From the NCBI GenBank assembly GCA_011176615.1, contig DUEG01000001.1:209-64208 (forward strand): a stretch of DNA of 64,000 bases, read 5' to 3'. How positions within the stretch are numbered: the stretch's first letter is position 1; each line of letters opens with the position of its first letter. The position numbers and the translations under genes were made by a program. The notes under the pieces were generated by a model. It saw nothing but the letters and a program-made list of their open reading frames with translations. It was not told the origin of the DNA and did not search any database. The stretch comes from Anaerolineae bacterium (GTDB lineage Bacteria > Chloroflexota > Anaerolineae > Anaerolineales > UBA11858). Positions 9,828 through 64,000 of the stretch are shown piece by piece.

Positions 9828-9852
9828 ACATCCAGATAAAATTCATAAGGAA

Positions 9853-17894: not shown

Positions 17895-17969
17895 CGGGGC
17901 GTGGCGCAGTCCGGCTAGCGCGCTACAATGGGGTTGTAGAGGTCCCGGGTTCGAATCCCGGCGCCCCGA
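17895..17969 (+). tRNA. tRNA-Pro (anticodon GGG)
   Basis: Cloverleaf folded by hand. Acceptor CGGGGCG/CGCCCCG with C1:G72 and A73 (bacterial tRNA-Pro identity). D stem GCGC/GCGC. Anticodon stem CTACA/TGTAG with loop AT-GGG-GT. Variable loop AGGTC. T arm CCGGG-TTCGAAT-CCCGG. No encoded CCA. Confidence 0.9.
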
Positions 17970-17976
17970 CTTTTTG

Positions 17977-23981: not shown

Positions 23982-24096
23982 CGTCAATTCCTTAAGTTAT
24001 CAATATCGAGATCTTTTGTTGCTTTGTTTAGTATTTATTACCATAGATTCAGGTATTTTCCGAATAATCATTGATGAAAAACCAATAAAACAGTGA

Positions 24097-25065: not shown

Positions 25066-25069
25066 TTAT

Positions 25070-41300: not shown

Positions 41301-43937
41301 CAAGAAATAGTCAACACCACAATTGATCTGGCTAAAGTTTATCAATTACAAGACAAGCAAGAAAAAGCGATCCAATTACTCGATGAAATCAGTCAAGACT
41401 CAAATGACCTAACCATCAAACTTTTAAAAGTTCGCATTTTCCATTCATTAGGCAAAACCCAAGCAGCAATCGCGGCATTAGAAGATGCATTCAACCTATA
41501 TCCTGAACACCCCGAATGTCATTTCATTGCGGCTCAAATTTATCGCTCAAAAGGAGATTTGGTTCCTGCCCTTTACCACGCTAGCGAAGTCTTAGCCAAA
41601 CTTCCTCAAAATCAGAAAGCAAGGGTTCTAGCGGCAGAGATCAGCACTTCTGTTTTGGACAAAAAAGAATCCTTAAAATTCTTACAATCAGCATCAATTA
41701 ATGCACAAGATAACAAGCACGGGTGGATTAATAATAACCAAAATGCTGGAGTGCAATACCCCTGCCTCCGAGCAGAGGCTGCTTTGGTTGACAATAATGA
41801 GGTTGAGGCAGCAGATGCGTTAACCCAAGCCATGAAAATCAACTCATCCCACCCAAGGGTTCTCGCTATTCAGGCTCGTCTTACTGCTCGACGGGGTGAT
41901 AATGAGGCTGCCAACGAGATCCTCAATTCGGCTGTCGAAACGCTAAGAAATTCCAAGGCGATCTCAAGGGATCGTTTCCCAATCACCAGTCTCGAAGAAA
42001 ATTCTGATAACGCACAAAATCCATCTGAATTTCCATTTGCTGCCGAAGATTACTTTGGAGTAACCGAAGCATCTATTGAGTTAAATCGTTGGGAATCTGC
42101 TATCTCCTTATCGAAAAAGGGAGCCCATCTAGCACCGTTTGAACCAAAATCACATTTAACTATTGCCCGGACACTTGTGCTACGAGCCGAGATGCAAAGA
42201 ATCTGCAATGACCTACTCATCATCGAACATGCACCAGGTGATATAGCCCTTAATAAACTAGCATGGGATCAATTCGAAGAAGCCATAAAAAAAGTTGAAT
42301 TATTAATCCCTGATCATACTTTATCGCCTAATGAGGATTTAGACACCCTTATTTCCCAATGGCAATTACGTGGCGAGGCAGTCTTCAGTCCCAACGATGG
42401 GTTGATCAAAAATCTTGAAAAATACGATAGCGATGATGTACTTAGCATTTCTCTGATTGAAACTCTTAGACTCTTGAATAAAAATCATCGTGCTGCAGAT
42501 ATAGCCAATAATCTAATAATCCAGCAAGATGACCGGAGTCTTACCAACCCCAAACAATTAATCGTGATCGCATTGGGCTTAGCCGAAACTGACCCTCATA
42601 AAGCTATGATAACAATCCAAGAAGCCATTGAGTCTTATCCAATACACGACTTGCAGAAGACACCACTCCTCTATGCTTTGCTAAGTAAAACAGCATTTCT
42701 CGACTCGGATTATAAGGTGGCGATTGAAGCAATCGATAAAGCATTGGAAATATGGGATAACGAAGCAAACTGGCACGCACTAGCCGCTGACATTATCCTT
42801 GCTCAAGAAAAATCAAATAACGCTAAAATGGGCACAATCTCCCTTTCTCATCAAGCAATTACGGGGATCATCGATCATAGGGAACGTTGCCACCAACTTC
42901 TTCCAAATGACATCAATCATCAAATCTCGCTCGCCAAAACATATCAAATCACTGGGCGTTTATTTGATGCAATAAAGCAATTGGAAGATGCTGTCCACGA
43001 GCACCCCAACCATCCCGAAGCCTGGATAGCATTAGCCGAAATTTACCAAGACAAAGGGGAACTCGACAAAGCTGTCGAAATGAGCAAAAAGGCAATCAAA
43101 CTTGACGAATCGAATAGCAAAAACTTACTATTCTTTGCTCGCTTACTTGTGAACACCAAGAAATTTAAAGAGGCAGCAGAAATAACGAAAGCCATAATCC
43201 ATAATAATCCCAAAAATCCTGATGGCTATTATTTATTATCCAAATCTCTCCTTGGTACTGACAAAAAAGTCGATGCAATCAAAGCCCTTGAAAGAGCCCT
43301 TTCACTCGCTCCTGACGACATCAAATTAGAACTCGAAAAAATTCATTTGCTTGAATTAACGCAAGGGAAAGAAAGCGCATTCAAATCTCTCCAAATGCTC
43401 TCGGAGAAATATCCCAATGAATCTGTTATCCAAATAACATACGCAAAGGAACTTTTACAGAGGAATCAATATGAAGATGCAATCGCCATCACCAAAAACG
43501 CGCTAAATCTTATCAACAATCAAGACGTAGCGGATATTAAGGCATCAGAATTGCATTTCCTTCTTGGACATCTTTATAAAAAAACTGGACAATTGGATCA
43601 TGCAATTCATCATCTATCACAATCCATAAGCCTTAATCCCAACAACGCAAAAGCATATATCGAAGCAGGGAGTACTTACCAAAAACAACATCAGTATCGA
43701 AAAGCAATTGAATCTTTCAAATCCGCAATTGAGATTGCTCCCAATTCTTCAGATGCATACTATCACGCTGGGTTAAATTACAAAAGTATGAAAGATTATC
43801 AAAACGCTGAGAGTATGTTCCGAAAAGCAGCAGAGTATGCACCCAATGATTTATCTATCCATCGACAATTAGGCGCCATGGTTGCAATCAATCTGGTACA
43901 TAATCGTCAGAATTTAGCCGCTGTAGGTGCTGATTAA
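38370..43937 (+). CDS. giant (1855 aa) tetratricopeptide-repeat protein, no signal peptide
   Basis: Uninterrupted 5.6-kb ORF with dozens of 34-aa TPR units, for example AEAWIALAEIYQDKGELDKAVEMSKKAIKLDESN and SDAYYHAGLNYKSMKDYQNAESMFRKAAEYAPND. The first ~450 aa show no obvious TPR periodicity. Confidence 0.9.
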   Translation: MEKQNLIADLKNIFPEKNWSWIIPTLQNDPLVWEQIRDTKFRRLVVEKLHRKPLLWTPANLALIAIDPNIPKENLTTNQSPLSIPYILEKAKVLLREYSIKPNPPKSLAEAGYYAIALLDDFNKKKDWNQTFKHVLSTNEPSIFETSLRTALACIYSWFLPPQDFLNALYRISKKESLIIHIILSNPAQPEERAELFTHLVKPYDLNSKFHFVDTLNQYDPKIAQEVAKQIVRRLPRDVFPNHSKSIPSLSEEIQTLLAKDGLYTIASEISNAKQILQKAWESTKNLNNEIALTFAKREVKAGHIENALETWKKMEASSDLELTTDFIIELIQQQYTKEAKNIFNKINGTRGKISSSNGKSHPSLTFVKALMNFKEGNLQDAYKYAKIIREEIQNVNSKTIYHKYSKKNLLSLANLFLDLGYPFDAYQVTSIAQKYYANDLDIVKAHYQSLNLMVPHTEDTLFHEEAINTAHLATTLSPDRIDFRRNLAKAYESARMWDDANNQWVEILDKQATPRIEDLRSYAKCAFQAGFKEQAVKACNYGLSIDSEDGLTYLILAKIHEADEKVKKAYDYYSKALQYSPDEPDVWLGYADSLIKQGKRGEAIAIINRGLNAIPNAPLLHEKIGEIHLLNKDFENAVEQLKIVNKYLNEIPSSKNNELRLKNASSLGDAYYQTGKYKQAIEILKPVHIAHPTDPHIAYQYAKSLLEANQPNKAIQPMVRVLQTNPKEIAPYIDYAKAQIAAENDPKEAIRSLEHVMKIKPDHQEALALLGDAYAQDDQLEKAIKTYQKVLETPLKENPLWFVRLSHGIGKAHLRMGKTEAAITMLKQAQAEDPNNIKVLKTLADAYIQAKLPENALEISKNVLHKKPEDIDVHLWYAKIAKSLDNSSDAIRVLKRANEINPDRQDVLISLGQTHYDAGNIDLARQTFTSIVNHPKTNLHDLKKVASYLLTLDDLPNATKALTKALELAKKSFDNTQEIVNTTIDLAKVYQLQDKQEKAIQLLDEISQDSNDLTIKLLKVRIFHSLGKTQAAIAALEDAFNLYPEHPECHFIAAQIYRSKGDLVPALYHASEVLAKLPQNQKARVLAAEISTSVLDKKESLKFLQSASINAQDNKHGWINNNQNAGVQYPCLRAEAALVDNNEVEAADALTQAMKINSSHPRVLAIQARLTARRGDNEAANEILNSAVETLRNSKAISRDRFPITSLEENSDNAQNPSEFPFAAEDYFGVTEASIELNRWESAISLSKKGAHLAPFEPKSHLTIARTLVLRAEMQRICNDLLIIEHAPGDIALNKLAWDQFEEAIKKVELLIPDHTLSPNEDLDTLISQWQLRGEAVFSPNDGLIKNLEKYDSDDVLSISLIETLRLLNKNHRAADIANNLIIQQDDRSLTNPKQLIVIALGLAETDPHKAMITIQEAIESYPIHDLQKTPLLYALLSKTAFLDSDYKVAIEAIDKALEIWDNEANWHALAADIILAQEKSNNAKMGTISLSHQAITGIIDHRERCHQLLPNDINHQISLAKTYQITGRLFDAIKQLEDAVHEHPNHPEAWIALAEIYQDKGELDKAVEMSKKAIKLDESNSKNLLFFARLLVNTKKFKEAAEITKAIIHNNPKNPDGYYLLSKSLLGTDKKVDAIKALERALSLAPDDIKLELEKIHLLELTQGKESAFKSLQMLSEKYPNESVIQITYAKELLQRNQYEDAIAITKNALNLINNQDVADIKASELHFLLGHLYKKTGQLDHAIHHLSQSISLNPNNAKAYIEAGSTYQKQHQYRKAIESFKSAIEIAPNSSDAYYHAGLNYKSMKDYQNAESMFRKAAEYAPNDLSIHRQLGAMVAINLVHNRQNLAAVGAD

Positions 43938-43983
43938 ACACTAAACACTGCATAATCTAAATTACATCAGAGATTAAAAACTT

Positions 43984-46641
43984 ATGATTAAATCAACGCT
44001 CTCCCCCATCCCGACAAATGAGCCTTGGCCAAGACAATACGTGCAAAAATTAGTCGAAACTGCATTGAGTGCAAATTCAATTAGGTTTGCAAGAGCTTTA
44101 TCGGAAGCCTGGCTAGATAACTTTCCTGGTGATTTAACCTTTCACTTTCTCCTGGCAAAATCCTGGTTTGCACTAAAAAGACTTAACAAGGCAACTGGAA
44201 TCATCAAGAAAGTAATAGATACGGATCCGGAATATCTTGCAGCACAAAGACTATACCAAAAGTTGCTCCTGTCTCTAAAGCATCCATCCCTTCCTATCGT
44301 GAATGGTGATGTCTATGTTCTCAGCGGTAAGTATGAAGGTAAGATCAAATTGCCAAAGTGGAGCGAGACCTTGATTTATGCAAGACGAGCAATCAATCAA
44401 GAGAATTTTCAACTTGCCGAAAAATTAACTCACGAAATTCTTGGACAAGACCCTCCCACCCCATTAGGAGCAATTACTCACATACGCGCAATGATCGGTT
44501 CACCGATAAATCTTTCGCGACCACCTATTTCCTCATTACAGAAAATCACCGAATTCTATCATAAAAAGTGGCCATCATGCCTTCTTTTCGACCTGGTTTT
44601 AGCGGATACTCTCCTGGATACTGGTCAGGAAGATCAAGCCGTTTCAATGATCCATCATGCAGCCTCGCGAGACTCTTCTGGACAAGTTGCGAAGAGATTA
44701 TGGGGACCTAAGCATCCTTACTTAAACATGTGGCTTAAAAATATGGAAGCCCGCTTTGATATACCAATTCCTGCGGATGTCTCTACGGTTTTAGGATGGA
44801 ACCAGCTTCCTATCGGGTCATCAGGGTCAGACGAACCTCTCGTTCAGGAGGAAGAAAATAACAAACTAAAAACACCTTTCGAATTTGATATTAATCTCAT
44901 TGAAACCAAAAATAAACATGGGGAAAAACAAAAAGAATCTGAGTCACTAGAATCCGTAAAAGAACAATTAGAACGAGTCGCTAAAAGAATAAAGAGACCT
45001 GACCTAATTCAAGCAGACGGTCGATATCCTGTCTATGTTGTTTTTACAACAAAACAAGGTTTGATCTCAAAATATGGCGTGGATACAGCAGAAATGATTG
45101 ACAAAGAACTCCAGCAAATCGTTTCGGCGGTTCGAGATAAAGAAAACTGGGGTGCAGTTCTTGTGTACGCAGATGATCCGATTTGTATGGCAGCATTCGA
45201 TCTCAAACCAGCAAAGGCAAATGACCCTTGGAGTTTGAAATTATTAATATCTGAATTAGATAAAAAACTCGGCGAAAAAGGATCAATGATTGGTTCTTTA
45301 CTTATCATTGGAGGACCCGATGTTGTTCCCTATCATATGTTACCCAATCCAACCGATGATATAGATGCAGAAGTGCCATCCGACAATCCTTATGCAACAC
45401 GGGACGAAAACTATTTCATTCCAGAGTGGCCGACCGGTCGTTTGCCTGATGGATTTGGAAATGATCCGGGGCTATTGATCAGTGTTCTCAGAAAAATTTC
45501 TGAGTATCACTGGAACCAGAATCATAAAAATACCAATCCATTCAAGATATGGATAGAGCAGATTATTGCTTTCTTTAAAGGTAAGCACAATTCCAAGCGC
45601 AAACCTTTTGGATTCAGTGCTGAGGCATGGTTAAGAGCATCTGTTTCCGTATATAAGACAATTGGAAAACCGGAAGAAATTGTCACTTCACCACCGAATG
45701 GATTGTCAAATGGGTTCTCTTTATCTCCCTACCACTTAGGATATTTCAACTTGCACGGTTTACCCGATGCGCCCGAATGGTACGGACAAAGTGACCCACA
45801 AACGAATCAAGGAGAGATTTATTATCCAATCGCTATTCACCCAAACGATTTAAACAATGGTAAGGAAACCGGCTCTCACCAAACACGTGTTCCTAAAATT
45901 GTTTTTACAGAGGCTTGCTTTGGCGCAAACATTATTGACAAAATAATTGATGAATCTCTAGCGTTAAAATTTATCGTCTCAGGAACAAAAGTATTCATCG
46001 GGTCAACAGCGATTGCTTATGGCTCAATCGACATGAATCTCACTTCCGCAGATTTGCTTGGTAAAACATTTTGGCGTTTTGTCAAAGACGGCTACACTAC
46101 AGGGGAAGCGCTATATCGTGCAAAGATTTTTTACGCGAAAGAGATGCACGAGCGTAATGATTACCTCGACGGTGAAGATCAAAAGACATTGATTTCCTTC
46201 ATTCACTTCGGTGATCCTCTCTATCATTCGCCAATATTCCAGAAGAGTTACGCCAAACTCAAAGATCAACAAGCGGACATGGGAATCCTAAGAGTTAAAG
46301 CACCCATCGAAGAAATTAATACTGTTTGTGATAACTGTGAAACCTGGAACGATGGCGATTCCATTCCCCCGCAAGTCATGGCACATGTCAAAGCAGTTGT
46401 AGAACAATATCTGCCAACAATGTCTGGCGCTCATGTTACTGTCCACCAAGATGAAATCTCCTGCTTAAATTCAGAATCAGTTTGCTTAAATGGTTCAACA
46501 AGCAAAAAAGTAACCCTGAAGAATCATAGAGTTGTTGTTCTAAACAAGCAAATAAAACAGGCTAAACATCTCCATAATCGTTATGCACGCTTAACCTTAG
46601 ATAATAGCGACAAAATTGTCAAGATATCAGTATCAAGATAA
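43984..46641 (+). CDS. 885-aa protein with a TPR-like N-terminus and a C-terminal gingipain/C25-like (clan CD) cysteine peptidase domain; no signal peptide
   Basis: C25-like motif order: YVVFTT.., LLIIGGPDVVPYHML, SDNPYA, TGRLP, YFNLHG (His591, nt 45754-45756), IVFTEACFGAN (Cys645, nt 45916-45918), VFIGSTAIAYG, TTGEALYRAK, FIHFGDPLY. The fold call is by motif resemblance and was not searched. Confidence 0.6.
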   Translation: MIKSTLSPIPTNEPWPRQYVQKLVETALSANSIRFARALSEAWLDNFPGDLTFHFLLAKSWFALKRLNKATGIIKKVIDTDPEYLAAQRLYQKLLLSLKHPSLPIVNGDVYVLSGKYEGKIKLPKWSETLIYARRAINQENFQLAEKLTHEILGQDPPTPLGAITHIRAMIGSPINLSRPPISSLQKITEFYHKKWPSCLLFDLVLADTLLDTGQEDQAVSMIHHAASRDSSGQVAKRLWGPKHPYLNMWLKNMEARFDIPIPADVSTVLGWNQLPIGSSGSDEPLVQEEENNKLKTPFEFDINLIETKNKHGEKQKESESLESVKEQLERVAKRIKRPDLIQADGRYPVYVVFTTKQGLISKYGVDTAEMIDKELQQIVSAVRDKENWGAVLVYADDPICMAAFDLKPAKANDPWSLKLLISELDKKLGEKGSMIGSLLIIGGPDVVPYHMLPNPTDDIDAEVPSDNPYATRDENYFIPEWPTGRLPDGFGNDPGLLISVLRKISEYHWNQNHKNTNPFKIWIEQIIAFFKGKHNSKRKPFGFSAEAWLRASVSVYKTIGKPEEIVTSPPNGLSNGFSLSPYHLGYFNLHGLPDAPEWYGQSDPQTNQGEIYYPIAIHPNDLNNGKETGSHQTRVPKIVFTEACFGANIIDKIIDESLALKFIVSGTKVFIGSTAIAYGSIDMNLTSADLLGKTFWRFVKDGYTTGEALYRAKIFYAKEMHERNDYLDGEDQKTLISFIHFGDPLYHSPIFQKSYAKLKDQQADMGILRVKAPIEEINTVCDNCETWNDGDSIPPQVMAHVKAVVEQYLPTMSGAHVTVHQDEISCLNSESVCLNGSTSKKVTLKNHRVVVLNKQIKQAKHLHNRYARLTLDNSDKIVKISVSR

Positions 46642-54502: not shown

Positions 54503-55633
54503 CTATGACATCTTAAGCGTTTCTTTTCTTCGTTCTTCTATTGAATTTAGCAAATTTGTAAAAGCATCAGCAAATGCTTTTACCCCTTGGTCCTCTAATT
54601 CCTGGGTTACTTCATCCATTGAAATGCCCAATGCTTCAATATCAACGAATGCTTGCCGCGCTTCATCTACTCCATTTTCTAGGGTTAATTCCACCTTTCC
54701 ATGGTCTTTAAATGCTTGTAGTGTTTTGGGAGGCACTGTATTTACCGTATTGGGACCGATCAAATTATCTACATAGGTCGTATCAGGATAAGCAGGATTC
54801 TTCGTACTAGTTGACGCCCATAATGGTCTCTGAAGGTTAGCACCCTTGGATTCAAGGGCCTTGAACCGCTTCGATCCAAATATCTCTTTGAATTCTTGGT
54901 ACGCAAGTTTTGCACTGGCAATTGCCAGTTTTCCCTGGAGTTTTTTTACACTGGCTGAATCTCTCTTTCCAGTCTCTATTAATGTGTTCAACCTATTGTC
55001 AACATTTGTGTCAATTCTCGAGACAAAGAAAGAAGCCACTGAGGCGATATTATCCACGCGTAAACCATTTGCAAGTCGTTTTTCGATCCCCATAAGGTAT
55101 GCTTCTACTACTTCTTTATAGCGTTCAAGGGAAAAAATCAGGGTTACATTTATATTAATTCCTTGCATGATCGCTTGGGTTATTGCTGGTAAACCTTCTT
55201 TTGTAGCAGGTATCTTTACCATTAAATTCGGTCGATTCACGTGCGTCCAGAGGTAGACAGCATCTTTAAGGGTCTTTTCTGTATCATACGCAAGGTAAGG
55301 ATTAACTTCCAAACTTACATATCCATCACCATAATTTGTTTCATTATACAAGGGGTAGAAAAGATCTGCAGAGGTTTGAATATCTTTGATAGACAATTGT
55401 TGATAAATCTCCTCTTTCTCTAATCCTTTTCTTGCCAAGATGATAAGTTCATCGTTATATTCATCTGATTTAGCAATGGCTTTATTAAATATACTGGGGT
55501 TTGAAGTAACCCCTCGAATATCTCCCCTATTTATCATTTGCTTAAACATGCCGTTCTTCAACAATCTGCGCTCTATATTGTCATACCAGATTGACTGACC
55601 GAGTGCATGAAGTTCTTCAAGTTTGTTTACCAT
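54503..55633 (-). CDS. tal: transaldolase (long, ~375-aa type)
   Basis: SIWYDN, RGVTSNPSIF and the Schiff-base Lys context MVKIPATKEG. Confidence 0.9.
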   Translation of the reverse strand: MVNKLEELHALGQSIWYDNIERRLLKNGMFKQMINRGDIRGVTSNPSIFNKAIAKSDEYNDELIILARKGLEKEEIYQQLSIKDIQTSADLFYPLYNETNYGDGYVSLEVNPYLAYDTEKTLKDAVYLWTHVNRPNLMVKIPATKEGLPAITQAIMQGININVTLIFSLERYKEVVEAYLMGIEKRLANGLRVDNIASVASFFVSRIDTNVDNRLNTLIETGKRDSASVKKLQGKLAIASAKLAYQEFKEIFGSKRFKALESKGANLQRPLWASTSTKNPAYPDTTYVDNLIGPNTVNTVPPKTLQAFKDHGKVELTLENGVDEARQAFVDIEALGISMDEVTQELEDQGVKAFADAFTNLLNSIEERRKETLKMS

Positions 55634-55827
55634 TTCTTCTCCAAATAGATTTCGTTGTCCTTGATTAATATTTTATTTTCAAATTCATTATACCTTTTTC
55701 TCCGAAAAACATTCCTCCACTCATTTATTTGTTAGATAACTCAGTGTCATAATTTCTTACGCAATTAAAGATTGAAAATATATTAATTATTACAAAAATA
55801 ATTTTATGTTTAAATCCCTTGTCTACT

Positions 55828-55843
55828 GGTGACATATATCACA
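55828..55843. promoter_or_regulatory. CRP/FNR-family-type palindrome upstream of hdrC
   Basis: GGTGA-catata-TCACA versus the consensus TGTGA-N6-TCACA (9 of 10 half-site positions). It lies in the 369-bp very AT-rich intergenic region about 173 bp before the hdrC ATG. Confidence 0.4.
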
Positions 55844-56008
55844 ATAAGTTTATGCTATTCATAACTATCATTATTACTTATGTTACTTGATACTTATATA
55901 TATACCCAGTCTTCAAGCATGCCATCTAATAATAAAGGAAAATATATCGCGTGTTCAATAAACCTTGTTAAAAATATGATAGACCTTTAATAATCCAAGG
56001 AGGTCTGA

Positions 56009-56596
56009 ATGGAAACAAATTTACAAACTTCTAGGACACCCACCTTCTATGATGAAGTGATTCGTGATACCCCCGGAGGGGATCCGAATCTAGAAATGTG
56101 TATCCAATGTGGCACTTGTGGTGGCTCTTGTCCTTCTGGAGCGGATATGGATCATACACCCAGAAATTTATTCGCAATGATCAATGCTGGCATGAAAGAA
56201 GATGTGCTTCGTTCAAACTCTCCTTGGTATTGCGTATCGTGCTATTACTGCATGGTACGATGCCCCCAAGAAATCCATATCACCGACATCATGTATACAT
56301 TAAAGCGCATGGCTATCAAAGAGGGTTTGTACCGTGAATCAAGCGCCAGCGAAGCCCCTGGATTTTCTGAAACATTCATCCATTACGTTGAGAATTATGG
56401 GCGCAGTTTTGAACTCGGTTTAGCCACCTGGCATCATCTGAGATACCACCCGATTAATGCCATTCGCATGGCTTCAACGATGGGACTTGAATTACTCAGG
56501 AAAGGACGCATGGATTTAACCCCGACTCGGATTAAAAATATGCCTCAACTTAAAAAAATACTTAAAAAAGCGAAAGCGATAGGAGGCACAACATGA
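56009..56596 (+). CDS. hdrC: heterodisulfide reductase subunit C-like (2x[4Fe-4S])
   Basis: CIQCGTCGGSCP and CVSCYYCMVRCP. AAGGAGG SD present. The stop overlaps the hdrB ATG (ATGA). Confidence 0.85.
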   Translation: METNLQTSRTPTFYDEVIRDTPGGDPNLEMCIQCGTCGGSCPSGADMDHTPRNLFAMINAGMKEDVLRSNSPWYCVSCYYCMVRCPQEIHITDIMYTLKRMAIKEGLYRESSASEAPGFSETFIHYVENYGRSFELGLATWHHLRYHPINAIRMASTMGLELLRKGRMDLTPTRIKNMPQLKKILKKAKAIGGTT

Positions 56597-57564
56597 AGTA
56601 CGGTTATTACCCGGGTTGCTCCCTTGAGCGTAATGCTATTGCATATCAACAATCCACTATGGCTATCGCAAAGCCATTGGGAATTGAATTCATCGAAGTG
56701 GAGGATTGGAATTGTTGTGGGGCGACTGAGTACTTCGCTATCGATGCCCTAGCCGCTTATGCGCTCGTAGGAAGAAATCTCGCTCTTGCTTCTCAACAAA
56801 AACTCAATGGGGATAGAAATCAATTGGTAGCACCTTGTAGTGCTTGCTTTTTAAATTTGTACAAAACAGATCACTATATGGCTGAGGACAACAAGTTAAA
56901 TGCCAATGTCAACGAAGCCTTAGCCGCAGGTGGTCTTCACTATGACCCAGGTACTGTAAAAGTACGCCATCTTCTTGATATCATCGTCAATGATATCGGT
57001 TACGAAGCAATCGCTGAGAGAGTTACTAAACCCCTATTTAACCTGCGTGTTGCACCTTATTACGGATGCATGATTGTACGTCCCGCCTCCATAGAATCTT
57101 TTGATAACCCTGAATACCCCACAAGTCTAGATAAATTAACACATTCTCTTGGGGCAGAGGTTGTTGATTTTCCACTAAAAGCGCATTGCTGTGGCGGGCA
57201 TATGACCCAGATCAGTGAGAATACTGCTTTAGAATTAATCAGACGCTTGTTGAAAAACGCTGCTGATTACGACGCAGACATGATTGTAACGCTATGTCCA
57301 ATGTGTCAATTGAATCTAGATGCTTACCAAGAAAATGTCAACAAACACTTTGGAACCAATTTTCATATACCTGTCCTTTACTTCACCCAACTGATGGGAT
57401 TAGCATTCGGATTATCAGCAAATAACCTGGGCTTAGGGAAAGAATTTATTAATGCAAAACCCGCATTGGATAAGATAAGTAGTGAGCCTCTAAAAAAACA
57501 ACGGAGAAAGAAACGACCGCCAAAAGAAACGCTCCCGATGCCAACAATGCCGGAGGAGAGTTAA
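56593..57564 (+). CDS. hdrB: heterodisulfide reductase subunit B-like (two CCG domains)
   Basis: The CCG motifs are WNCCGATEYF and AHCCGGHM, with associated CxxC contexts (CSAC.., CPMC..). Confidence 0.85.
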   Translation: MKYGYYPGCSLERNAIAYQQSTMAIAKPLGIEFIEVEDWNCCGATEYFAIDALAAYALVGRNLALASQQKLNGDRNQLVAPCSACFLNLYKTDHYMAEDNKLNANVNEALAAGGLHYDPGTVKVRHLLDIIVNDIGYEAIAERVTKPLFNLRVAPYYGCMIVRPASIESFDNPEYPTSLDKLTHSLGAEVVDFPLKAHCCGGHMTQISENTALELIRRLLKNAADYDADMIVTLCPMCQLNLDAYQENVNKHFGTNFHIPVLYFTQLMGLAFGLSANNLGLGKEFINAKPALDKISSEPLKKQRRKKRPPKETLPMPTMPEES

Positions 57565-57567
57565 GCC

Positions 57568-59598
57568 ATGACTGAAGAAAGAATTGGTGTTTACGTCTGT
57601 CACTGTGGAACAAACATCGCTGGAACAGTCGATGTTGAAGAAGTCTCGAAATGGGCAGGAGAAAAACTAAAAAAAGATGGGGTTGTAGTTTCTCGTGACT
57701 ATAAATTTATGTGTTCAAGCCTTGGTCAGGAACTAATCCAAGCCGATATCAAAGAAAAAAGTTTGAATCGAGTAGTTGTAGCCGCCTGCTCACCTCATCT
57801 TCACGAAAAAACATTCCGCACTGCCTGCCAAAAAGCGGACATGAATCCATACTTATGCGAAATGGTCTCCATCAGAGAACAGGTTTCATGGGTTCACACA
57901 GACAAACGTGTTGCTACAGAAAAAGCCAAAGCGCTGATAAGTGGAGGTGTTCTAAGAGTTGCAAAGGACGAACCATTGGAAGCCATCCACGTGCCAATTA
58001 ACCCAGCAACTCTCATCGTTGGGGCTGGAATTGCCGGTATTCAAGCAGCATTGGAAATTGCAGATAGCGGATTTCCAGTTTACCTTGTAGAACGCGATTC
58101 ATCGATTGGCGGTCACATGGCTCAATTCGATAAAACATTCCCAACCCTTGACTGTGCAGCGTGTATATTAACACCGAAGATGGTAGACGCAGGTGATCAT
58201 CCAAATATTACCCTGCTTACATTAAGTGAAATTGAGCAAGTAGATGGGTATGTAGGCAACTTCACTGTAACGATCCGCAAGGGCGCAAGATATGTCAAAG
58301 AAGATGTATGCACTGGTTGCGGTATTTGCATCGAAAAATGCCCAATTAAAGTAATTGACACAAATTTCGAAGCGGGTCTTGGTTACCGAAAAGCAATTTA
58401 CCGCAATTTTCCTCAAGCAATTCCCAAATATCCAGCCATTGACACAGAGCACTGCACCTATTTCCTACACGGCAAATGCAAAGCCTGCCAACTTTTCTGT
58501 CCAACCCAACCTAATTCCATCGATTTCGAACAGCAAGACGAAGTTATCCGGATCGAAGTAGGGAATATCATCTTGGCTACAGGTTATGATCTCTTCAACT
58601 CTCGCCGAATCCCTCAATATGGTTATGGTAGGCTCGCCAACGTTTTCACCAGCCTCGAATTTGAGCGCATGTGTAATGCAGCAGGACCAACCGAAGGGAG
58701 GGTCTTTTTACGTGATGGTATTACCCAGCCAAAGACTGTTGGCATCATCCATTGCGTTGGCAGTAGAGATAAGCACTACAACAACTACTGTTCGGTCATT
58801 TGTTGTATGCAAAGTCTTAAATTTGCTCACTTGGTCAAAGAACGCACAGGTGCTGAGGTGTACGAATTCTATATTGATATGCGTACGGCTTTCAAGGATT
58901 ATGATGAGTTTTATCAAAGAGTGCTCCAAGAGGGCGTCAACTTTATTAGAGGCAGAGTGGCAGAAGCTACAGACGCTGCCCGCTTACCAGGGGAAGAAGG
59001 TAAATTGATTATCCAAGCAGAGGATACATTAATTGGAAAACAACGACGAATTCCGGTTGATATGGTCATCCTCTCAGCGGGTCTAGAACCGAGAGCAGAT
59101 TCAGAAGAAGTTGCCAAGAAATTTGGTATTTCTTGCAGTTCAAATGGGTTTTTCATCGAAAAACACCCAAAACTCGACCCAATATCAACACTGACCGAAG
59201 GCATTTTCATCGCAGGAGCATGCCAGGGACCTAAAGACATCCCGGCAAGTGTTACTCAAGGCGCAGCAGCAGCAGCACGCGTCCTCGGTCGCATCCAATC
59301 GAAAGAACTTGCACTTGAACCAATACGAGCAAGCGTGATAGAAGAAAGGTGTTCGGGCTGTAGAATATGCAACGACCTCTGCCCATTCAATGCAATAACT
59401 TTCAACGAAGAACTGAATGTAACAAATATCAATCAAGCCTTATGCCAAGGTTGTGGCACTTGTGTCGCAGCCTGCCCATCTGGCGCAATTTCCGGAACAC
59501 AATTTAGCGACGAACAGATACTTGCCCAACTCGATGGAATTCTATCTTTACCGATTAATAGCGGAAAGGTAAAAACCTTGGAAAGTGTGCCTGCCTGA
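57568..59598 (+). CDS. hdrA: heterodisulfide reductase subunit A-like (FAD, multiple Fe-S; electron-bifurcating type)
   Basis: N-terminal Cys domain VYVCHCGTNIAG. FAD-binding GAGIAGIQAALE. Ferredoxin motifs CTGCGICIEKCP, CSGCRICNDLCP and CQGCGTCVAACP. Confidence 0.9.
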   Translation: MTEERIGVYVCHCGTNIAGTVDVEEVSKWAGEKLKKDGVVVSRDYKFMCSSLGQELIQADIKEKSLNRVVVAACSPHLHEKTFRTACQKADMNPYLCEMVSIREQVSWVHTDKRVATEKAKALISGGVLRVAKDEPLEAIHVPINPATLIVGAGIAGIQAALEIADSGFPVYLVERDSSIGGHMAQFDKTFPTLDCAACILTPKMVDAGDHPNITLLTLSEIEQVDGYVGNFTVTIRKGARYVKEDVCTGCGICIEKCPIKVIDTNFEAGLGYRKAIYRNFPQAIPKYPAIDTEHCTYFLHGKCKACQLFCPTQPNSIDFEQQDEVIRIEVGNIILATGYDLFNSRRIPQYGYGRLANVFTSLEFERMCNAAGPTEGRVFLRDGITQPKTVGIIHCVGSRDKHYNNYCSVICCMQSLKFAHLVKERTGAEVYEFYIDMRTAFKDYDEFYQRVLQEGVNFIRGRVAEATDAARLPGEEGKLIIQAEDTLIGKQRRIPVDMVILSAGLEPRADSEEVAKKFGISCSSNGFFIEKHPKLDPISTLTEGIFIAGACQGPKDIPASVTQGAAAAARVLGRIQSKELALEPIRASVIEERCSGCRICNDLCPFNAITFNEELNVTNINQALCQGCGTCVAACPSGAISGTQFSDEQILAQLDGILSLPINSGKVKTLESVPA

Positions 59599-59618
59599 GG
59601 GAAGGAAGGAAAATAAAT

Positions 59619-60104
59619 ATGACTGATCAGACAAATTTCGAACCAATGGTTGTCGGTTTTACATGCAATTGGTGTAGTTATCGTGCTGCCGACCTGGCAG
59701 GTATGTCAAGAATTAAGTATCCACCCAATATCAGACTCATCCGTTTAATGTGTTCAGGTAGATTGGACCCAACTTTTGTATTGAAAGCATTCGAAGGAGG
59801 CGCTGATGGAGTTCTAATCTCAGGATGTCATCCCGGAGAATGCCACTATCTTGAACAAAATTACAAAATGTTGAAACGATTTTTGCTCTTAAGAAAAATG
59901 CTTATCCAAATGGGTATAGAACCAGACCGCTTAAAACTTCTATGGGCGAGCGCCGCCGAAGGAGCACGTTTCGCAGAGGAAGTAACGAAAATGGTAGAAA
60001 CAGTCCGATCCCTCGGCCCATTAAATTGGTCTAAGGTAGTAGATTCAAATGGTGGACATGCTACCGTAATTCCTGTCCTAGCCAAAGAGGAGGTGACCGC
60101 ATGA
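59619..60104 (+). CDS. mvhD: MvhD/FlpD-family protein (methyl-viologen-reducing hydrogenase delta subunit)
   Basis: GFTCNWCSYRAADLAG...LMCSGR...ISGCHPGECHY is the family signature. Confidence 0.85.
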   Translation: MTDQTNFEPMVVGFTCNWCSYRAADLAGMSRIKYPPNIRLIRLMCSGRLDPTFVLKAFEGGADGVLISGCHPGECHYLEQNYKMLKRFLLLRKMLIQMGIEPDRLKLLWASAAEGARFAEEVTKMVETVRSLGPLNWSKVVDSNGGHATVIPVLAKEEVTA

Positions 60105-61132
60105 ACGATAACGGTAAACCAAAACTAGCAATGTACTGGTGTGCTTCATGTGGTGGCTGCGAAATCTCAGTACTCAATATCCACGAACACATCCTCGACG
60201 TAGATGCTGTGTTCGATATAGTATTTTTCCCTTGCATCGCTGACTTTAAACTCCAGGATGTACAAGGATATCCTGATGGCTATATTGATGTATGCCTTTT
60301 CAATGGAGCAATTCGAAACTCTGAAAATGAGGAGATGGCGCATCTTCTCCGAAAAAAATCGAAGATATTGGTTGCTTATGGTTCATGCTCTTATGAAGGA
60401 TGTATTCCAGCCCTTTCAAATCTAACCTCAAAAGAAGCAACTTTCCAAACTGTGTATATAGATAATCCCACAATCGATAACCCTGATGGAATACTACCCC
60501 AAACTATGACAAAAGTTCCCGAAGGAGAATTAGAATTACCGTTTTTTTACAATACTGTAAAATCTTTGGATCAAGTCGTAGAGGTTGATTATTATCTTCC
60601 TGGATGTCCACCTGAACCTCCCCAAATTTGGGCTGTATTAGAAGTAGTCATCGCCGCACTTACACAAGGTGCTCCCTTACCCCCGAAAGGATCTATCGTC
60701 GGCGCAAAAGATGTCGCAGTTTGTGAAGAATGCCCAAGGGAGAAACACGAAAAAACAATCGCTCGGTTTTACCGACCATACGAGATCAATCCCGATCCAG
60801 ATCTTTGCCTACTCGAACAAGGAATCATTTGCATGGGTATTGCTACCAGAGGAGGATGTGGGGCACTATGCCCACAAGTCGGAATGGGATGTAGAGGTTG
60901 TTATGGGCCTCTTCCGGGCGTCGAAGATCAAGGAGCCAAAATGCTCAGTGCCATCGCATCCGTTATTGATGTGGGGGATGTGGGTGACGATGAAAAACTA
61001 TTAGAACAAAAAATCGAAGAAGTAATTGCAACCATTCCTGATCCCGCAGGGACTTTCTATCGATTCAGCATGGCACATTCAATCCTACAACGCACACGAA
61101 TAAGCGAAAACGGGAAAGGAGATTCAGAATGA
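60101..61132 (+). CDS. mvhG: [NiFe]-hydrogenase small subunit, F420-non-reducing (MvhG) type
   Basis: Proximal cluster context YWCASCGGCEISVLN, then LPGCPPEP, with distal cluster Cys runs CEECP and GGCGALCP..GCRGCYGP. ATGA overlaps occur at both ends. Confidence 0.85.
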   Translation: MNDNGKPKLAMYWCASCGGCEISVLNIHEHILDVDAVFDIVFFPCIADFKLQDVQGYPDGYIDVCLFNGAIRNSENEEMAHLLRKKSKILVAYGSCSYEGCIPALSNLTSKEATFQTVYIDNPTIDNPDGILPQTMTKVPEGELELPFFYNTVKSLDQVVEVDYYLPGCPPEPPQIWAVLEVVIAALTQGAPLPPKGSIVGAKDVAVCEECPREKHEKTIARFYRPYEINPDPDLCLLEQGIICMGIATRGGCGALCPQVGMGCRGCYGPLPGVEDQGAKMLSAIASVIDVGDVGDDEKLLEQKIEEVIATIPDPAGTFYRFSMAHSILQRTRISENGKGDSE

Positions 61133-62619
61133 AACGGATAACAATTGATCCCATCACCCGTCTGGAAGGACACGGAAAGATAGAAATCTTTCTCAACGAG
61201 GAAGGAGAAGTTGCCAACGCTTATCTCCAAATCCCAGAACTTCGTGGATTTGAACAATTCTGCATTGGACGACCCGCGGAAGAGATGCCTCGGATAACAA
61301 ATCGGATTTGTGGTGTTTGTCCAGAAGCCCATCACATGGCTGCTACAAAGGCATTGGATGCCTTATTCCATGTTGAACCACCTTCTGTCACCAAAAAGTT
61401 GCGCGAATTGTTCTATTCAGCCTTCTATGTTACAGACCATACTGTTCACTTCTATGCCCTAGGTGGACCTGATTTTATCCTCGGACCTGATTCCCCTGCT
61501 GCAGAACGGAATATATTGGGTGTAATCCACAAAGTTGGCGTAGAAATTGGTAAAAAAGTTATTAATACGCGTAAGCGCAATCATCATGTCATCCAAATGC
61601 TTGGCGGACGCGGTATCCATCCGGTTGCGGGTCTCCCCGGCGGTTGGAGCAAAGCCATGACTAAAGAAGAAAGGGATGAAATCGAGGGTTATGCCAAGGA
61701 AAATGTAGAATTTGCCCTATTCAGCCTCCAACTATTTGAAGATATTGTCCTTGCTAACAAAGCCTATGTAGATTTGATCCTATCCGATGCTTTTACCCAC
61801 AAAACCTACTATATGGGAACAGTGGACAAAAACAACCAAATAAATTTTTATGATGGGATGATTCGAGTCGTTGGACCTGATGGCAAAGAGTTTGTGAAGT
61901 ATCACCCGGAGGACTATGCTAAACATATCGCCGAACATGTTGAACCTTGGTCTTACCTCAAATTTCCTTATCTTAAAGACATTGGTTGGAAAGGATTTGT
62001 GGATGGAAAGGACAGCGGCGTATATTGTGCAACGCCACTATCAAGGCTTAATGCTTCCGATGGAATGGCTACACCAAAAGCGCAGGAATTCTACGAGAAA
62101 TTTTATGAAACCTTGGGAAGTAAAAAAATTAACGGGCGTTATCAACCAGTCCATTATCGCCTTGCAACACATTGGGCTCGATTGATTGAATTGCTATATG
62201 CGGCAGAACGTATGCTTGAATTGGTTCAGGACCCTGAAATTACTGACCCCAATGTCCGCGCTCCAATAACGGAGAAACCCGATGAAGGTATTGGAGGAGT
62301 TGAAGCGCCCCGTGGAACGCTAACCCATCACTATGCCACAGATGAAAACGGCATCCTTACTAAAGTTAATCTAATCGTTGGAACCACAAATAACTATGCC
62401 CCTATCAGCATGTCTATAAAGAAGGCTGCCCAGGGATTAATCAAAAAGGGAACCATTATCTCTGATGGTCTATTAAACATGATCGAAATGGCTTTTCGCA
62501 ACTACGATCCTTGCATGTCATGCGCCACACACTCTCTACCTGGGCAGATGCCTCTAGAAGTCGTGATTCGTAATGTTGATGGGAATGAAATCGAGCGTTT
62601 AAGCCAGTTCATCAATTAA
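61129..62619 (+). CDS. mvhA: [NiFe]-hydrogenase large subunit, group 3c (MvhA) type
   Basis: N-terminal Ni-Fe ligand motif RICGVCPEAHH and C-terminal DPCMSCATH, followed by a 30-aa extension for proteolytic maturation. Confidence 0.9.
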   Translation: MKRITIDPITRLEGHGKIEIFLNEEGEVANAYLQIPELRGFEQFCIGRPAEEMPRITNRICGVCPEAHHMAATKALDALFHVEPPSVTKKLRELFYSAFYVTDHTVHFYALGGPDFILGPDSPAAERNILGVIHKVGVEIGKKVINTRKRNHHVIQMLGGRGIHPVAGLPGGWSKAMTKEERDEIEGYAKENVEFALFSLQLFEDIVLANKAYVDLILSDAFTHKTYYMGTVDKNNQINFYDGMIRVVGPDGKEFVKYHPEDYAKHIAEHVEPWSYLKFPYLKDIGWKGFVDGKDSGVYCATPLSRLNASDGMATPKAQEFYEKFYETLGSKKINGRYQPVHYRLATHWARLIELLYAAERMLELVQDPEITDPNVRAPITEKPDEGIGGVEAPRGTLTHHYATDENGILTKVNLIVGTTNNYAPISMSIKKAAQGLIKKGTIISDGLLNMIEMAFRNYDPCMSCATHSLPGQMPLEVVIRNVDGNEIERLSQFIN

Positions 62620-62672
62620 ACCTCTGTAACCCTGCGAGAACTTTTTGTTCTAACAGGATTTAATTAATATAT

Positions 62673-63170
62673 ATGAAAACTCTTGTTATTGGATTAGGAA
62701 ACCCCATCCTTACGGATGATGGCGTAGGAGTTAAAGTAGCATATCAGATTCAAGAGGATTTGTGTTCGGTACCGCATCCTGATATTGACATCACAGAAGC
62801 CTCTGTTGGGGGCTTGCATCTAATGGAAACAATGATCGGCTATGACCAAGTTTTCATTATCGATGCCATAATTCTTGAACATCAACCACAGCCAGGCAAG
62901 GTTCAACGCATGGCAATTGACGACCTACGCAACCTAAGCCCAACTCAACATAGTGCATCTGCTCACGATACAACATTAGTTACTGCATTGGATATGGCAA
63001 AACGAATAGGTCTGTCAATTCCCACTAAAATCGTGATTTATGCGATTGAAGTGGAGAATGTTCTCGAATTCAGCGAAACCACAACTTCAGAGGTATCTAA
63101 GAGCATTCCATTTGTTGCTCAAAAGATTATCGATGAATTAGCGATTGACTACAATCTCTCAATAAGTTAG
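62673..63170 (+). CDS. hydrogenase maturation endopeptidase (HyaD/HybD/FrhD family)
   Basis: VIGLGNPILTDDGVGV.. and ..FIIDAI.. motifs. 165 aa. Directly downstream of the large subunit. Confidence 0.85.
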   Translation: MKTLVIGLGNPILTDDGVGVKVAYQIQEDLCSVPHPDIDITEASVGGLHLMETMIGYDQVFIIDAIILEHQPQPGKVQRMAIDDLRNLSPTQHSASAHDTTLVTALDMAKRIGLSIPTKIVIYAIEVENVLEFSETTTSEVSKSIPFVAQKIIDELAIDYNLSIS

Positions 63171-63186
63171 AACTTTGGAGGGCGTT

Positions 63187-63687
63187 ATGATTTCACCTGA
63201 AACAATTCGTATGTATTCATTTTTCTCTGGTTTATCGAATGAGCAGATTATTCATCTGGCAAACGCTGCAGAGATAATTGATTTCGAAAAAGGACAATAT
63301 CTAATCGAAGAAGAGAAACCCTTAGAGAATTTCTTTATCGTCATCGAAGGAGAAATAGCCATCACAACAAAAGTTCCCGATCCAGAGAGGGCTCACGAGA
63401 CTTCCAAAATGATAACAGGCGAAGAACTGGAAAGCAAAGAAATCCAAACGAGCGTTATCGAAGGAGGTAATGTCTTTGCATGGTCTGCATTTATCCCCCC
63501 ATATATTGCTACCGCTAATGCAAAAGGGCTTACATCTGGAAAAGCAATTCAGTTTGATGCATTGAAATTACGGGAAATTTTCAAGCAAGACCCCCAATTT
63601 GGATACTTAATGACCCAAAAATCTGCCCAACTTATCCGGGACAGAATGAAGGATTTGCGTATCGAAACTCTTCTGTGTAAAGTTTAG
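63187..63687 (+). CDS. stand-alone cyclic-nucleotide-binding-domain (CAP effector domain-like) protein without an HTH
   Basis: ATG 63187 has GGAGGG upstream. FFSGLSNEQIIHLANAAEIIDFEKGQYLIEEEKPLENFFIVIEGEI is the beta-barrel N-terminus. The phosphate-binding-cassette position reads FAWSA (no Arg). The protein ends after the C-helix. Confidence 0.7.
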   Translation: MISPETIRMYSFFSGLSNEQIIHLANAAEIIDFEKGQYLIEEEKPLENFFIVIEGEIAITTKVPDPERAHETSKMITGEELESKEIQTSVIEGGNVFAWSAFIPPYIATANAKGLTSGKAIQFDALKLREIFKQDPQFGYLMTQKSAQLIRDRMKDLRIETLLCKV

Positions 63688-63868
63688 AAGACCAATACAT
63701 TTTCGTATGACTGTTATACCCAACGAAAGCGCGCGATAATCCGTCTCACTTGACCCAGGGAAAACCCTTTAAACCCGGCAGCCTGTACTGCGTTAATATG
63801 ATTACAGACTACCATCTGCATGCCTTCCTAATGTTTGATTTCTTTAATCGTCAATGCCAACTTTTTAT

Positions 63869-63972
63869 CCATAGGGTGACATTTCCATTGAACACTTAAG
63901 GGGTACCAATTTCGCTAAGCAATAAAAAAGACGCGCAGAATATTTGACATTTACTGATTAATGTTATATATT
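63869..63972 (+). repeat. copy 2 of the ~80-bp promoter-upstream module plus its promoter, facing out of the window
   Basis: GGTGACATTTCCATTGAACA (63875-63894) and GGTACCAATTTCGCTAAGCA (63902-63921), 27 bp apart. AAGACGCG at 63928-63935. TTGACA at 63944-63949, a 17-nt spacer, then TATATT at 63967-63972. Confidence 0.65.
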
Positions 63973-64000
63973 ATTAGTAAATTAAAAAGTAAGTAAGCGG

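Follow-up and report, generated by a model that had tools for sequence, protein, structure and literature searches.

We describe a hydrogenase gene cluster near the end of a 64,000-nucleotide stretch of DNA (the window, below) from contig DUEG01000001.1 of the Anaerolineae bacterium assembly GCA_011176615.1. With a probability that we put at about 0.7, the cluster encodes a cytoplasmic, electron-bifurcating complex of the MvhAGD-HdrABC type, in which a group-3c-type [NiFe]-hydrogenase is joined to a heterodisulfide reductase (Hdr)-like module and the acceptor is a bacterial disulfide other than CoM-S-S-CoB, the heterodisulfide of coenzyme M (CoM) and coenzyme B (CoB). From the gene content, the cofactor ligands, their conservation and the synteny of the cluster, we infer that the products form such a complex. 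A sequence-only reading of the window had proposed, for a non-methanogen, a bifurcating complex of Mvh-Hdr type whose acceptor was left unidentified, and this is still the best reading, given the matches to solved structures, the ligand cysteines, the Anaerolineae host and a window that holds no methanogenesis genes.

Gene layout and conservation

The features concerned are the following (nt, nucleotides; aa, amino acids).

56009-56596, + strand: hdrC, 195 aa; Pfam Fer4_8/9/17; Fer4 dicluster/HdrC family
56593-57564, + strand: hdrB, 323 aa; two Pfam CCG domains; HdrB family
57568-59598, + strand: hdrA, 676 aa; flavin adenine dinucleotide (FAD) flavoprotein; HdrA/HdrA2 families (Pfam, NCBIfam)
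59619-60104, + strand: mvhD, 161 aa, [2Fe-2S] adaptor between hydrogenase and HdrA; Pfam FlpD, E = 2.7e-52
60101-61132, + strand: mvhG, 343 aa, [NiFe]-hydrogenase small subunit; NCBIfam VhuG, 225 bits
61129-62619, + strand: mvhA, 496 aa, [NiFe]-hydrogenase large subunit; NCBIfam VhuA, 404 bits
62673-63170, + strand: hydrogenase maturation endopeptidase, 165 aa; TIGR00072, 102 bits (above the cutoff of 47); Pfam HycI
63187-63687, + strand: stand-alone cyclic nucleotide monophosphate (cNMP)-binding-domain gene, 166 aa; Pfam cNMP_binding
54503-55633, - strand: transaldolase, the upstream neighbour of hdrC
55828-55843, no strand: palindrome of the CRP/FNR type (GGTGACATATATCACA), 166 nt before the ATG of hdrC

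Gene coordinates, starts, overlaps and motifs were taken from the open reading frame (ORF) listing and from direct reading of the 64-kb window. The seven intact, co-directional genes that had been reported between 56009 and 63170, in the order hdrC-hdrB-hdrA-mvhD-mvhG-mvhA-protease, are all in the ORF listing, each with an ATG start and zero internal stops, and the ATGA overlaps at 56593, 60101 and 61129 could all be read directly. The mvhD gene starts 20 nt after hdrA and overlaps mvhG by 4 nt. A GGAGG-type Shine-Dalgarno sequence precedes six of the seven genes; on direct reading of the seven gene starts, none was evident before the protease gene. Pfam and NCBIfam returned the expected family for all seven proteins. 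Scans of 55500-64000 for sigma-70 promoters (17 vs 19.1) and for intrinsic terminators (6 vs 7.1) stayed at chance level. The transaldolase and the cNMP-domain protein that had been named as neighbours are both present, but the latter is not a mere neighbour: it is the next co-directional gene and probably the eighth member of the operon.

MvhA is 100% identical to a protein of NCBI 'MAG TPA: Anaerolineae bacterium' and 82-90% identical to thousands of proteins encoded in Anaerolineales and Chloroflexota metagenome-assembled genomes (MAGs). For a wider comparison we used an MvhA-alignment scan of GTDB, with one genome per species, which found relatives in at least 577 species-level genomes; the best 80 of these are 69-83% identical. 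Most of the relatives listed are Chloroflexota (Anaerolineae, Chloroflexia, Dehalococcoidia), and the others listed belong to the Nitrospirota, Acidobacteriota, Margulisbacteria, Gemmatimonadales and Armatimonadota. The order hdrC-hdrB-hdrA-mvhD-mvhG-mvhA is found in 42 of the 54 related loci for which both flanks were available, 39 of these 42 with the protease and 19 with the cNMP-domain gene, and a protease homologue follows mvhA in 65 of 73 related loci. That relatives keep this gene order indicates that the unit hdrC-B-A-mvhD-G-A is under selection.

Hydrogenase subunits

The large subunit carries both Ni-Fe ligand motifs that had been read from it, RICGVCPEAHH at MvhA residues 59-69 (61303-61335) and DPCMSCATH at residues 460-468 (62506-62532). 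It thus has the N-terminal RxCGxC, the C-terminal DPCxxC and the C-terminal tail by which a group 3c large subunit is recognised. The tail comprises 28 residues C-terminal to His468, and the maturation endopeptidase, for which a dedicated gene lies downstream, presumably removes it. Among solved structures in the Protein Data Bank (PDB), MvhA matches 9sw2_F (376 bits), 7t2r_D (375), 5odc_F (370) and 9sfi_g (368), then the group-3d protein 5xf9_D (305), with all remaining hydrogenase groups at or below 135 bits. VhuA is its best NCBIfam model at 404 bits, and the next model scores 174.

The small subunit, unlike the large one, discriminates between hydrogenase subgroups. MvhG aligns with 5odc_E over residues 8-327 (222 bits); the short small subunits 7t2r_E (87 bits) and 5xf9_C (64 bits) align only with residues ~6-188. 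With its 16 Cys and its C-terminal FeS-cluster domain, MvhG is of the long, multi-cluster Mvh type. MvhD has its best PDB match in 5odc_D (159 bits), and mvhD and hdrA are encoded alongside the hydrogenase. On sequence grounds, an assignment to the group-3c type is well supported by the closest characterised proteins in combination with a small subunit of MvhG type and the neighbouring mvhD and hdrA. A published phylogeny, in passages of bioRxiv 10.1101/2021.08.23.457424, likewise assigns Chloroflexi hydrogenases in this gene context to group 3c.

Hdr subunits

Each of the six subunits has its best solved-structure match in methanogen Mvh-Hdr complexes. For HdrC these are 8rvv_C (77 bits) and 5odc_C; its two [4Fe-4S] motifs, Cys 31/34/37/41 and 75/78/81/85, supply eight Cys, all aligned with methanogen ligands and conserved in the 52-53 relatives compared. 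HdrB (best match 8rvu_b, 183 bits) has the two CCG motifs that had been noted, at residues 41 and 199, and contains exactly ten Cys (9, 41, 42, 82, 85, 159, 199, 200, 235 and 238), all of which align with the methanogen noncubane-cluster ligands and are kept in 51-53 of 53 relatives. Two noncubane [4Fe-4S] clusters are predicted for HdrB, and the substrate is predicted to be reduced there.

HdrA matches 5odc_A with 686 bits and 52% identity. In this alignment it keeps 24 cluster Cys, for six predicted [4Fe-4S] clusters, as well as the Cys196/Cys199 pair beside the FAD (194/197 in 5odc_A), and it is the predicted site of bifurcation. At residues 296-311, the inserted ferredoxin domain has Cx7CxxCxxxCP as its second cluster motif, which carries a five-residue insertion (TYFLHGK) relative to the CxxCxxCxxxC of 5odc_A.

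Substrate pocket and electron acceptor

Passages of a study on PDB 5ODR (PMC13518236) describe a proton path to the CoM thiol that includes HdrB H154, HdrB E87 and HdrC Y81, and propose that HdrC K98 may stabilise waters and the CoM reactant. The window has Met160 and Lys91 at the H154 and E87 positions of HdrB and Tyr79 and Tyr96 at the Y81 and K98 positions of HdrC, so that HdrC Y81 is the only one of these four CoM/CoB turnover residues to be kept. The H154 position is occupied by M, L or Q in all 53 of 53 bacterial relatives, the E87 position by K, R, F or S across the 52-53 aligned, and the K98 position by Y or H in 52 of 52; Y81, by contrast, is conserved among them. HdrB also has a two-residue deletion after the second CCG motif. 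Because HdrB H154, HdrB E87 and HdrC K98 are replaced clade-wide, CoM-S-S-CoB is disfavoured as the substrate; the HdrBC pocket does not appear to be tuned for it, which fits a bacterial host.

The window had been said to lack mcr and CoM/CoB genes, and indeed there are none among its annotated ORFs, nor in the next 10 kb, which we viewed in a near-identical metagenome contig (MvhA ~100% match). Those 10 kb hold no hyp genes and no recognisable partner either. By Pfam, neither the window nor the 10 kb beyond it contains a known partner system that would tie the cluster to a characterised pathway.

Candidate carriers were sought by all-versus-all clustering of the flanking ORFs within +/-10 kb in 83 related loci. 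The recurrent families are the cNMP-domain gene (33 loci), a ~650-aa Fer4-CCG protein (19) and a histidine kinase with a response regulator (14), and pentose-phosphate genes also recur. Genes of the types metFV, flx, fdh, lbpA, tusA and dsrE were absent from the window and the 10 kb beyond, and none was recurrent in the 83 loci. In a passage of PMC6472368, Dong et al. write that what group 3c enzymes do in bacteria 'remains unresolved'.

The cNMP-domain gene

The likeliest start of the eighth gene is the ATG at 63187, which stands behind a GGAGG box and 17 nt past the protease stop. In 30 of 73 related loci, some of which lack hdrBC, mvhA or the protease is followed by a homologue, and when homologues were picked by protein search regardless of context, three of three lay in the same operon position. 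In this family (~150-170 aa) the N-terminus invariably reads MISPE, and the phosphate-binding cassette is modified to VFAWSAxxPPxxATA, which lacks the canonical Arg. The AlphaFold2 model of the window protein (pLDDT 89.7) has a cNMP-binding (CNB) fold with a long C-terminal helix and no helix-turn-helix or other DNA-binding domain; its best PDB match is the stand-alone protein 3mdp.

A parallel in gene order comes from the soluble NAD-reducing hydrogenase HoxFUYHI2 of Cupriavidus necator H16 (group 3d). Its pHG1 operon, hoxFUYHWI, has the same succession of large subunit, protease, ~167-aa cNMP protein and hyp genes (compare related locus L002), although its partner module is the HoxFU diaphorase and here it is MvhD-HdrABC. 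HoxI is a dissociable subunit of the purified soluble hydrogenase (PMC3189943) and has been described as a regulatory HoxI dimer (PMC12809855). The window protein shares its fold with HoxI and is remote from it in sequence (19% identity, pairwise E = 6e-4, hhalign 85.8%). It is related far more closely to a CNB protein from a hydrogenase operon of Burkholderia savannae (hhalign 99.7%); that operon lies on a plasmid, encodes a 4Fe-4S protein, a FAD/NAD(P)-binding protein and a small and a large subunit, and resembles group 3b. We infer that the cNMP protein is probably a HoxI-like accessory or regulatory component.

Stand-alone cNMP-domain proteins are found in cytoplasmic [NiFe]-hydrogenase operons of three subgroups: 3c, group-3b-like and 3d (HoxI, pHG1). 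The instances are window 63187-63687, L087 8971-9429 and L089 24836-25339. An IPPY/FGYxM signature is common to the Chloroflexota and Burkholderia proteins; HoxI is only remotely similar.

It is tempting to speculate, though we think it rather unlikely, that the Chloroflexota Mvh-Hdr is an eight-component enzyme, different in kind from its archaeal counterpart on two counts. Its HdrBC pocket (HdrB H154M, HdrB E87K, HdrC K98Y and the two-residue deletion) would have been remodelled for a bacterial thiol/disulfide couple not described so far, based on a protein carrier or on a new thiol of low molecular weight. The cNMP-fold subunit, common to group 3b and 3d operons, would be a HoxI-like, general nucleotide-sensing switch of cytoplasmic [NiFe]-hydrogenases. 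If this were true, a phylum that is among the most abundant in sediments would harbour a hidden thiol cycle driven by H2.

Upstream palindrome

The 375-nt region upstream of hdrC is AT-rich and holds the palindrome at 55828-55843, which departs from the CRP consensus TGTGA-N6-TCACA at a single position. The window has just one other site with no more than one mismatch. We compared the 600-nt regions upstream of hdrC in 50 related loci with 200 dinucleotide-preserving shuffles and found 20 CRP-type sites, spread over 16 loci, vs 0.92 +/- 1.0 in the shuffles, a ~20-fold enrichment. Over their whole length, the related loci contain 41 CRP-type sites in 947 kb. The palindrome is a candidate operator of the operon for a regulator of the CRP/FNR family. 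We also considered the cNMP-domain protein as the regulator that binds it and ruled this out: the protein has no DNA-binding domain, and the occurrence of the site shows no correlation with that of the gene (7 of 21 loci with the cNMP gene vs 9 of 29 without it).

Proposed mechanism and alternatives

By homology to the solved methanogen complexes, H2 would be oxidised at the Ni-Fe site of MvhA, a subunit that the protease would mature. From there the electrons would run along the FeS clusters of MvhG and then the [2Fe-2S] cluster of MvhD before reaching HdrA, at whose FAD the pair would be split. The low-potential electron would then travel through the ferredoxin domains of HdrA to ferredoxin, and the high-potential electron through HdrC to the two noncubane clusters of HdrB, where a disulfide would be reduced. 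This would be a bacterial low-molecular-weight or protein disulfide, not CoM-S-S-CoB. The reaction is probably reversible in vivo, the cNMP-domain protein probably serves as a HoxI-like accessory or regulatory subunit, and a CRP/FNR-family regulator probably controls the operon through the upstream palindrome.

Several points weigh against this reading. The large subunit of HydABCSL, a bifurcating hydrogenase without Hdr (7t2r_D, 375 bits), ties with the other MvhA matches, and therefore the large subunit alone does not fix the subgroup. Every methanogen equivalog model, Mvh/Vhu and Hdr alike, scores under its curated cutoff (VhuA 404 vs 800, VhuG 225 vs 450, VhuD 130 vs 215, HdrC TIGR03290 92 vs 160, HdrB TIGR03288 214 vs 345, HdrA 605 vs 1400 and HdrA2 810 vs 1100, the last two being NF041778/NF040770), and the proteins are therefore homologues, not equivalogs, of the archaeal enzymes. 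HdrB scores about equally with the MFR SdhE model (206 bits) and with the HdrB model (214 bits). Within +/-10 kb in the 83 loci there is no recurrent disulfide carrier (DsrC, TusA, LbpA, MetFV, Fdh). The cNMP gene is present in only ~40% of related loci, and its product is only weakly similar to HoxI (19% identity, hhalign 85.8%). Finally, bifurcation, complex formation and direction are extrapolated, because no Mvh-Hdr complex of this bacterial clade has been purified.

The direction in which the complex works, H2 uptake or confurcating H2 evolution, is not readable from sequence. Flavin-based bifurcating enzymes are reversible, and most Anaerolineae in culture are fermenters whose growth improves when hydrogenotrophic partners are present. 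The same complex could run in reverse, evolving H2 by electron confurcation from reduced ferredoxin and a thiol in a fermentative cell that lives syntrophically with H2 consumers. Only the direction would differ, the identity of the complex staying as it is, and we regard this as a substantial possibility, if the lesser one. The fermentative and catabolic genes of the window (phosphofructokinase (PFK), beta-oxidation, histidine ammonia-lyase and proline dehydrogenase) are in line with it, and the window shows no genes for autotrophy or for a respiratory hydrogenase; however, the same operon occurs in phototrophic Chloroflexaceae and in lineages of differing lifestyle, and there is no pointer to what would hold the thiol pool in its reduced state.

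We think it improbable, more so than the eight-component proposal above, that the HdrBC-like module reduces no disulfide and that its CCG-domain clusters instead serve an acceptor other than a thiol (for example a quinone or an organic acid), like those of the CCG-domain enzymes MFR/SdhE, GlpC, GlcF and LutA. HdrB has the full set of ten Cys for two noncubane clusters and is paired with HdrC, which is the architecture known for disulfide chemistry, and no membrane segment or quinone-site features were detected in HdrB or HdrC. What speaks for such an acceptor is the score of HdrB with the model of SdhE, the membrane anchor of MFR, the replacement of the methanogen pocket residues HdrB H154 and E87 and HdrC K98, and the ~650-aa Fer4-CCG protein within 10 kb in 19 of 83 related loci. 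In L009, the one locus inspected in detail, this protein has a NarI-like membrane domain and lies beside cytochrome b/Rieske genes; however, no Fer4-CCG gene is found near the cluster of the window.

That the cluster encodes a true CoM-S-S-CoB heterodisulfide reductase, acquired from a methanogen in recent times and working with the archaeal cofactors, is scarcely credible: HdrA is 52% identical to the methanogen enzyme and NCBIfam names all the proteins 'CoB-CoM heterodisulfide reductase', but all equivalog cutoffs are missed, the pocket residues are replaced, the window has no mcr or CoM/CoB genes, copies that are 69-90% identical form a deep bacterial clade in hundreds of bacterial genomes, and the GC content of the cluster (0.43-0.45) is only slightly above that of adjacent bins (0.36-0.41) and inside the whole-window range (0.36-0.45). 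Recent horizontal transfer from a methanogen is ruled out by this broad, deep clade together with a GC content in line with the window.

Comparison with known systems

The bifurcating, disulfide-reducing complex that we favour has the same six subunits as MvhAGD-HdrABC of Methanothermococcus thermolithotrophicus and Methanothermobacter marburgensis (PDB 5ODC, 8RVU, 9SW2). It shares with them the Ni-Fe CxxC pairs, a full-length MvhG, an MvhD homologue, the FAD and six clusters of HdrA, and two clusters each in HdrC and HdrB. Unlike the methanogen complex, it has a bacterial host, all six genes in one operon (hdrCBA-mvhDGA), no MvhB polyferredoxin, a basic C-terminal tail on HdrB and an MvhG that is ~40 aa longer, and CoM-S-S-CoB should not be taken for granted as its substrate.

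The best NCBIfam model for the window HdrA is HdrA2 (810 bits), after HdrA2B2C2 of Methanosarcina acetivorans, in which HdrA is fused to MvhD; the window MvhD matches the C-terminal part of the same model with 186 bits. Methanosarcina HdrA2B2C2 uses F420H2 and CoM-S-S-CoB. Here, unlike in HdrA2B2C2, separate genes encode HdrA and MvhD, and both go with a hydrogenase. HdrABC-like cores with MvhD-like adaptors are also found in non-methanogens: in HdrABC-MvhD-MetFV of Moorella and marine Chloroflexi (PMC5736913), in FlxABCD-HdrABC of Desulfovibrio, and in the sHdr system with LbpA/TusA of Hyphomicrobium and Thermomicrobium (PMC6776052). All of these systems differ in their partner, which here is a [NiFe]-hydrogenase. 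In most of these MetFV-, Flx- and LbpA/TusA-linked bacterial Hdr modules, the substrate of HdrB is unknown or non-archaeal.

The sequence-only reading overrated the novelty of the cluster, which is found in hundreds of genomes. Passages of West-Roberts et al. (bioRxiv 10.1101/2021.08.23.457424) describe, for genomes of Anaerolineae and Dehalococcoidia, hdrABC genes followed by a group 3c [NiFe]-hydrogenase, and passages of PMC6472368 describe bacterial 3c clusters in sediment MAGs. As far as those passages go, these clusters are of the same kind and from the same phylum, and the window is one more instance. The operon is real but already described and very common in Chloroflexota. The cNMP gene, the palindrome and the pocket substitutions have no mention in the passages concerned of these two sources, supplements aside, and a preprint on syntrophic acetate oxidisers contains no discussion of Mvh-Hdr in Anaerolineae.

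In anoxic sediments and in Chloroflexota, the hydrogenases of group 3c that come with Hdr modules rank among the most abundant. Their bacterial role is acknowledged as an open question in a passage of PMC6472368, and each well-documented instance adds a little. The window presents no new kind of system, and it comes from an uncultured MAG, so the question of the bacterial role is not directly testable there. It offers three leads, not discoveries: the clade-wide replacement of pocket and proton-relay residues, the conserved HoxI-like cNMP gene, and the recurrent CRP-type operator upstream of hdrC.

Variant loci among relatives

In ten loci from Nitrospirota, Acidobacteriota and Margulisbacteria (L033, L035, L037, L045, L048, L050, L063, L067, L081 and L082), the order is mvhG-mvhA-protease-hdrA-mvhD, and hdrBC was not found within 10 kb. 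The hydrogenase-HdrA core is uncoupled from HdrBC in these relatives.

Two of the Nitrospirota loci have an in-frame TGA for the second Cys of the MvhA L1 motif (RICGV*PEAHH; L050 10190-10192, L067 10187-10189), and the frame is conserved beyond it. A hairpin common to both, GGCGUC-AGUUAA-GGCGCU, lies ~20 nt downstream of the TGA (z = -2.6 in L067). This suggests selenocysteine at the N-terminal Ni-Fe ligand position of MvhA in the two loci. In known [NiFeSe] hydrogenases the selenocysteine is C-terminal. Chloroflexia and Dehalococcoidales relatives have in-frame TGA codons at the equivalents of HdrA Cys199, beside the FAD, and of MvhD Cys70 (L044 7248, 8828; L068 3470, 5041; L072 3449, 5020); the window has Cys at both. 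These are the positions at which some methanogens use selenocysteine.

In L009, 14295-18248 holds genes for cytochrome b6, subunit IV and a Rieske protein together with one for a 642-aa NarI-Fer4-CCG membrane protein (HdrED/DsrMK/EMO-like). Such a set lies 2-5 kb downstream of the Mvh-Hdr operon, and with six further, similar loci, seven share it. In L003 a ~650-aa Fer4-CCG gene directly follows an electron transfer flavoprotein (ETF) gene. A Fer4-CCG gene near the operon may hint at a membrane-linked counterpart of the soluble Hdr.

Surroundings in the window

A gene of the pentose-phosphate pathway or of gluconeogenesis lies directly upstream of hdrC in the window (54503-55633) and in several relatives, among them L005 and L002. 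It is a divergent transaldolase in the window and four relatives, a transketolase in eight relatives (divergent in L005, 2474-4486) and a co-directional fructose-bisphosphatase in L002 (3466-4434). This is probably inherited synteny, and co-regulation of hdrC and the sugar-phosphate gene through a shared intergenic region is possible.

By Pfam, some 40 further ORFs of the window have ordinary bacterial functions, including SRAP, ProRS, thiolase, hydroxyacyl-CoA dehydrogenase, acyl-CoA dehydrogenases, PFK, PPK2, peroxiredoxin, proline dehydrogenase, phosphoglucomutase, MnmA, L25, SmpB and histidine ammonia-lyase. The only hit of tRNA and Rfam scans of the window was a tRNA-Pro at 17895-17970, unrelated to the operon. 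At 22017-26311 there are two close MoeA paralogues, one of which (656 aa) is fused to a PBP-like domain (periplasmic-binding-protein superfamily). At 38370-46641, a 1855-aa protein that consists of TPR repeats nearly throughout precedes one of 885 aa whose TPR match is only marginal. On the - strand at 8934-10746, two adjoining 297-aa ORFs with no Pfam match at E <= 1e-6 sit in a beta-oxidation cluster, between the hydroxyacyl-CoA dehydrogenase gene and that for PFK.

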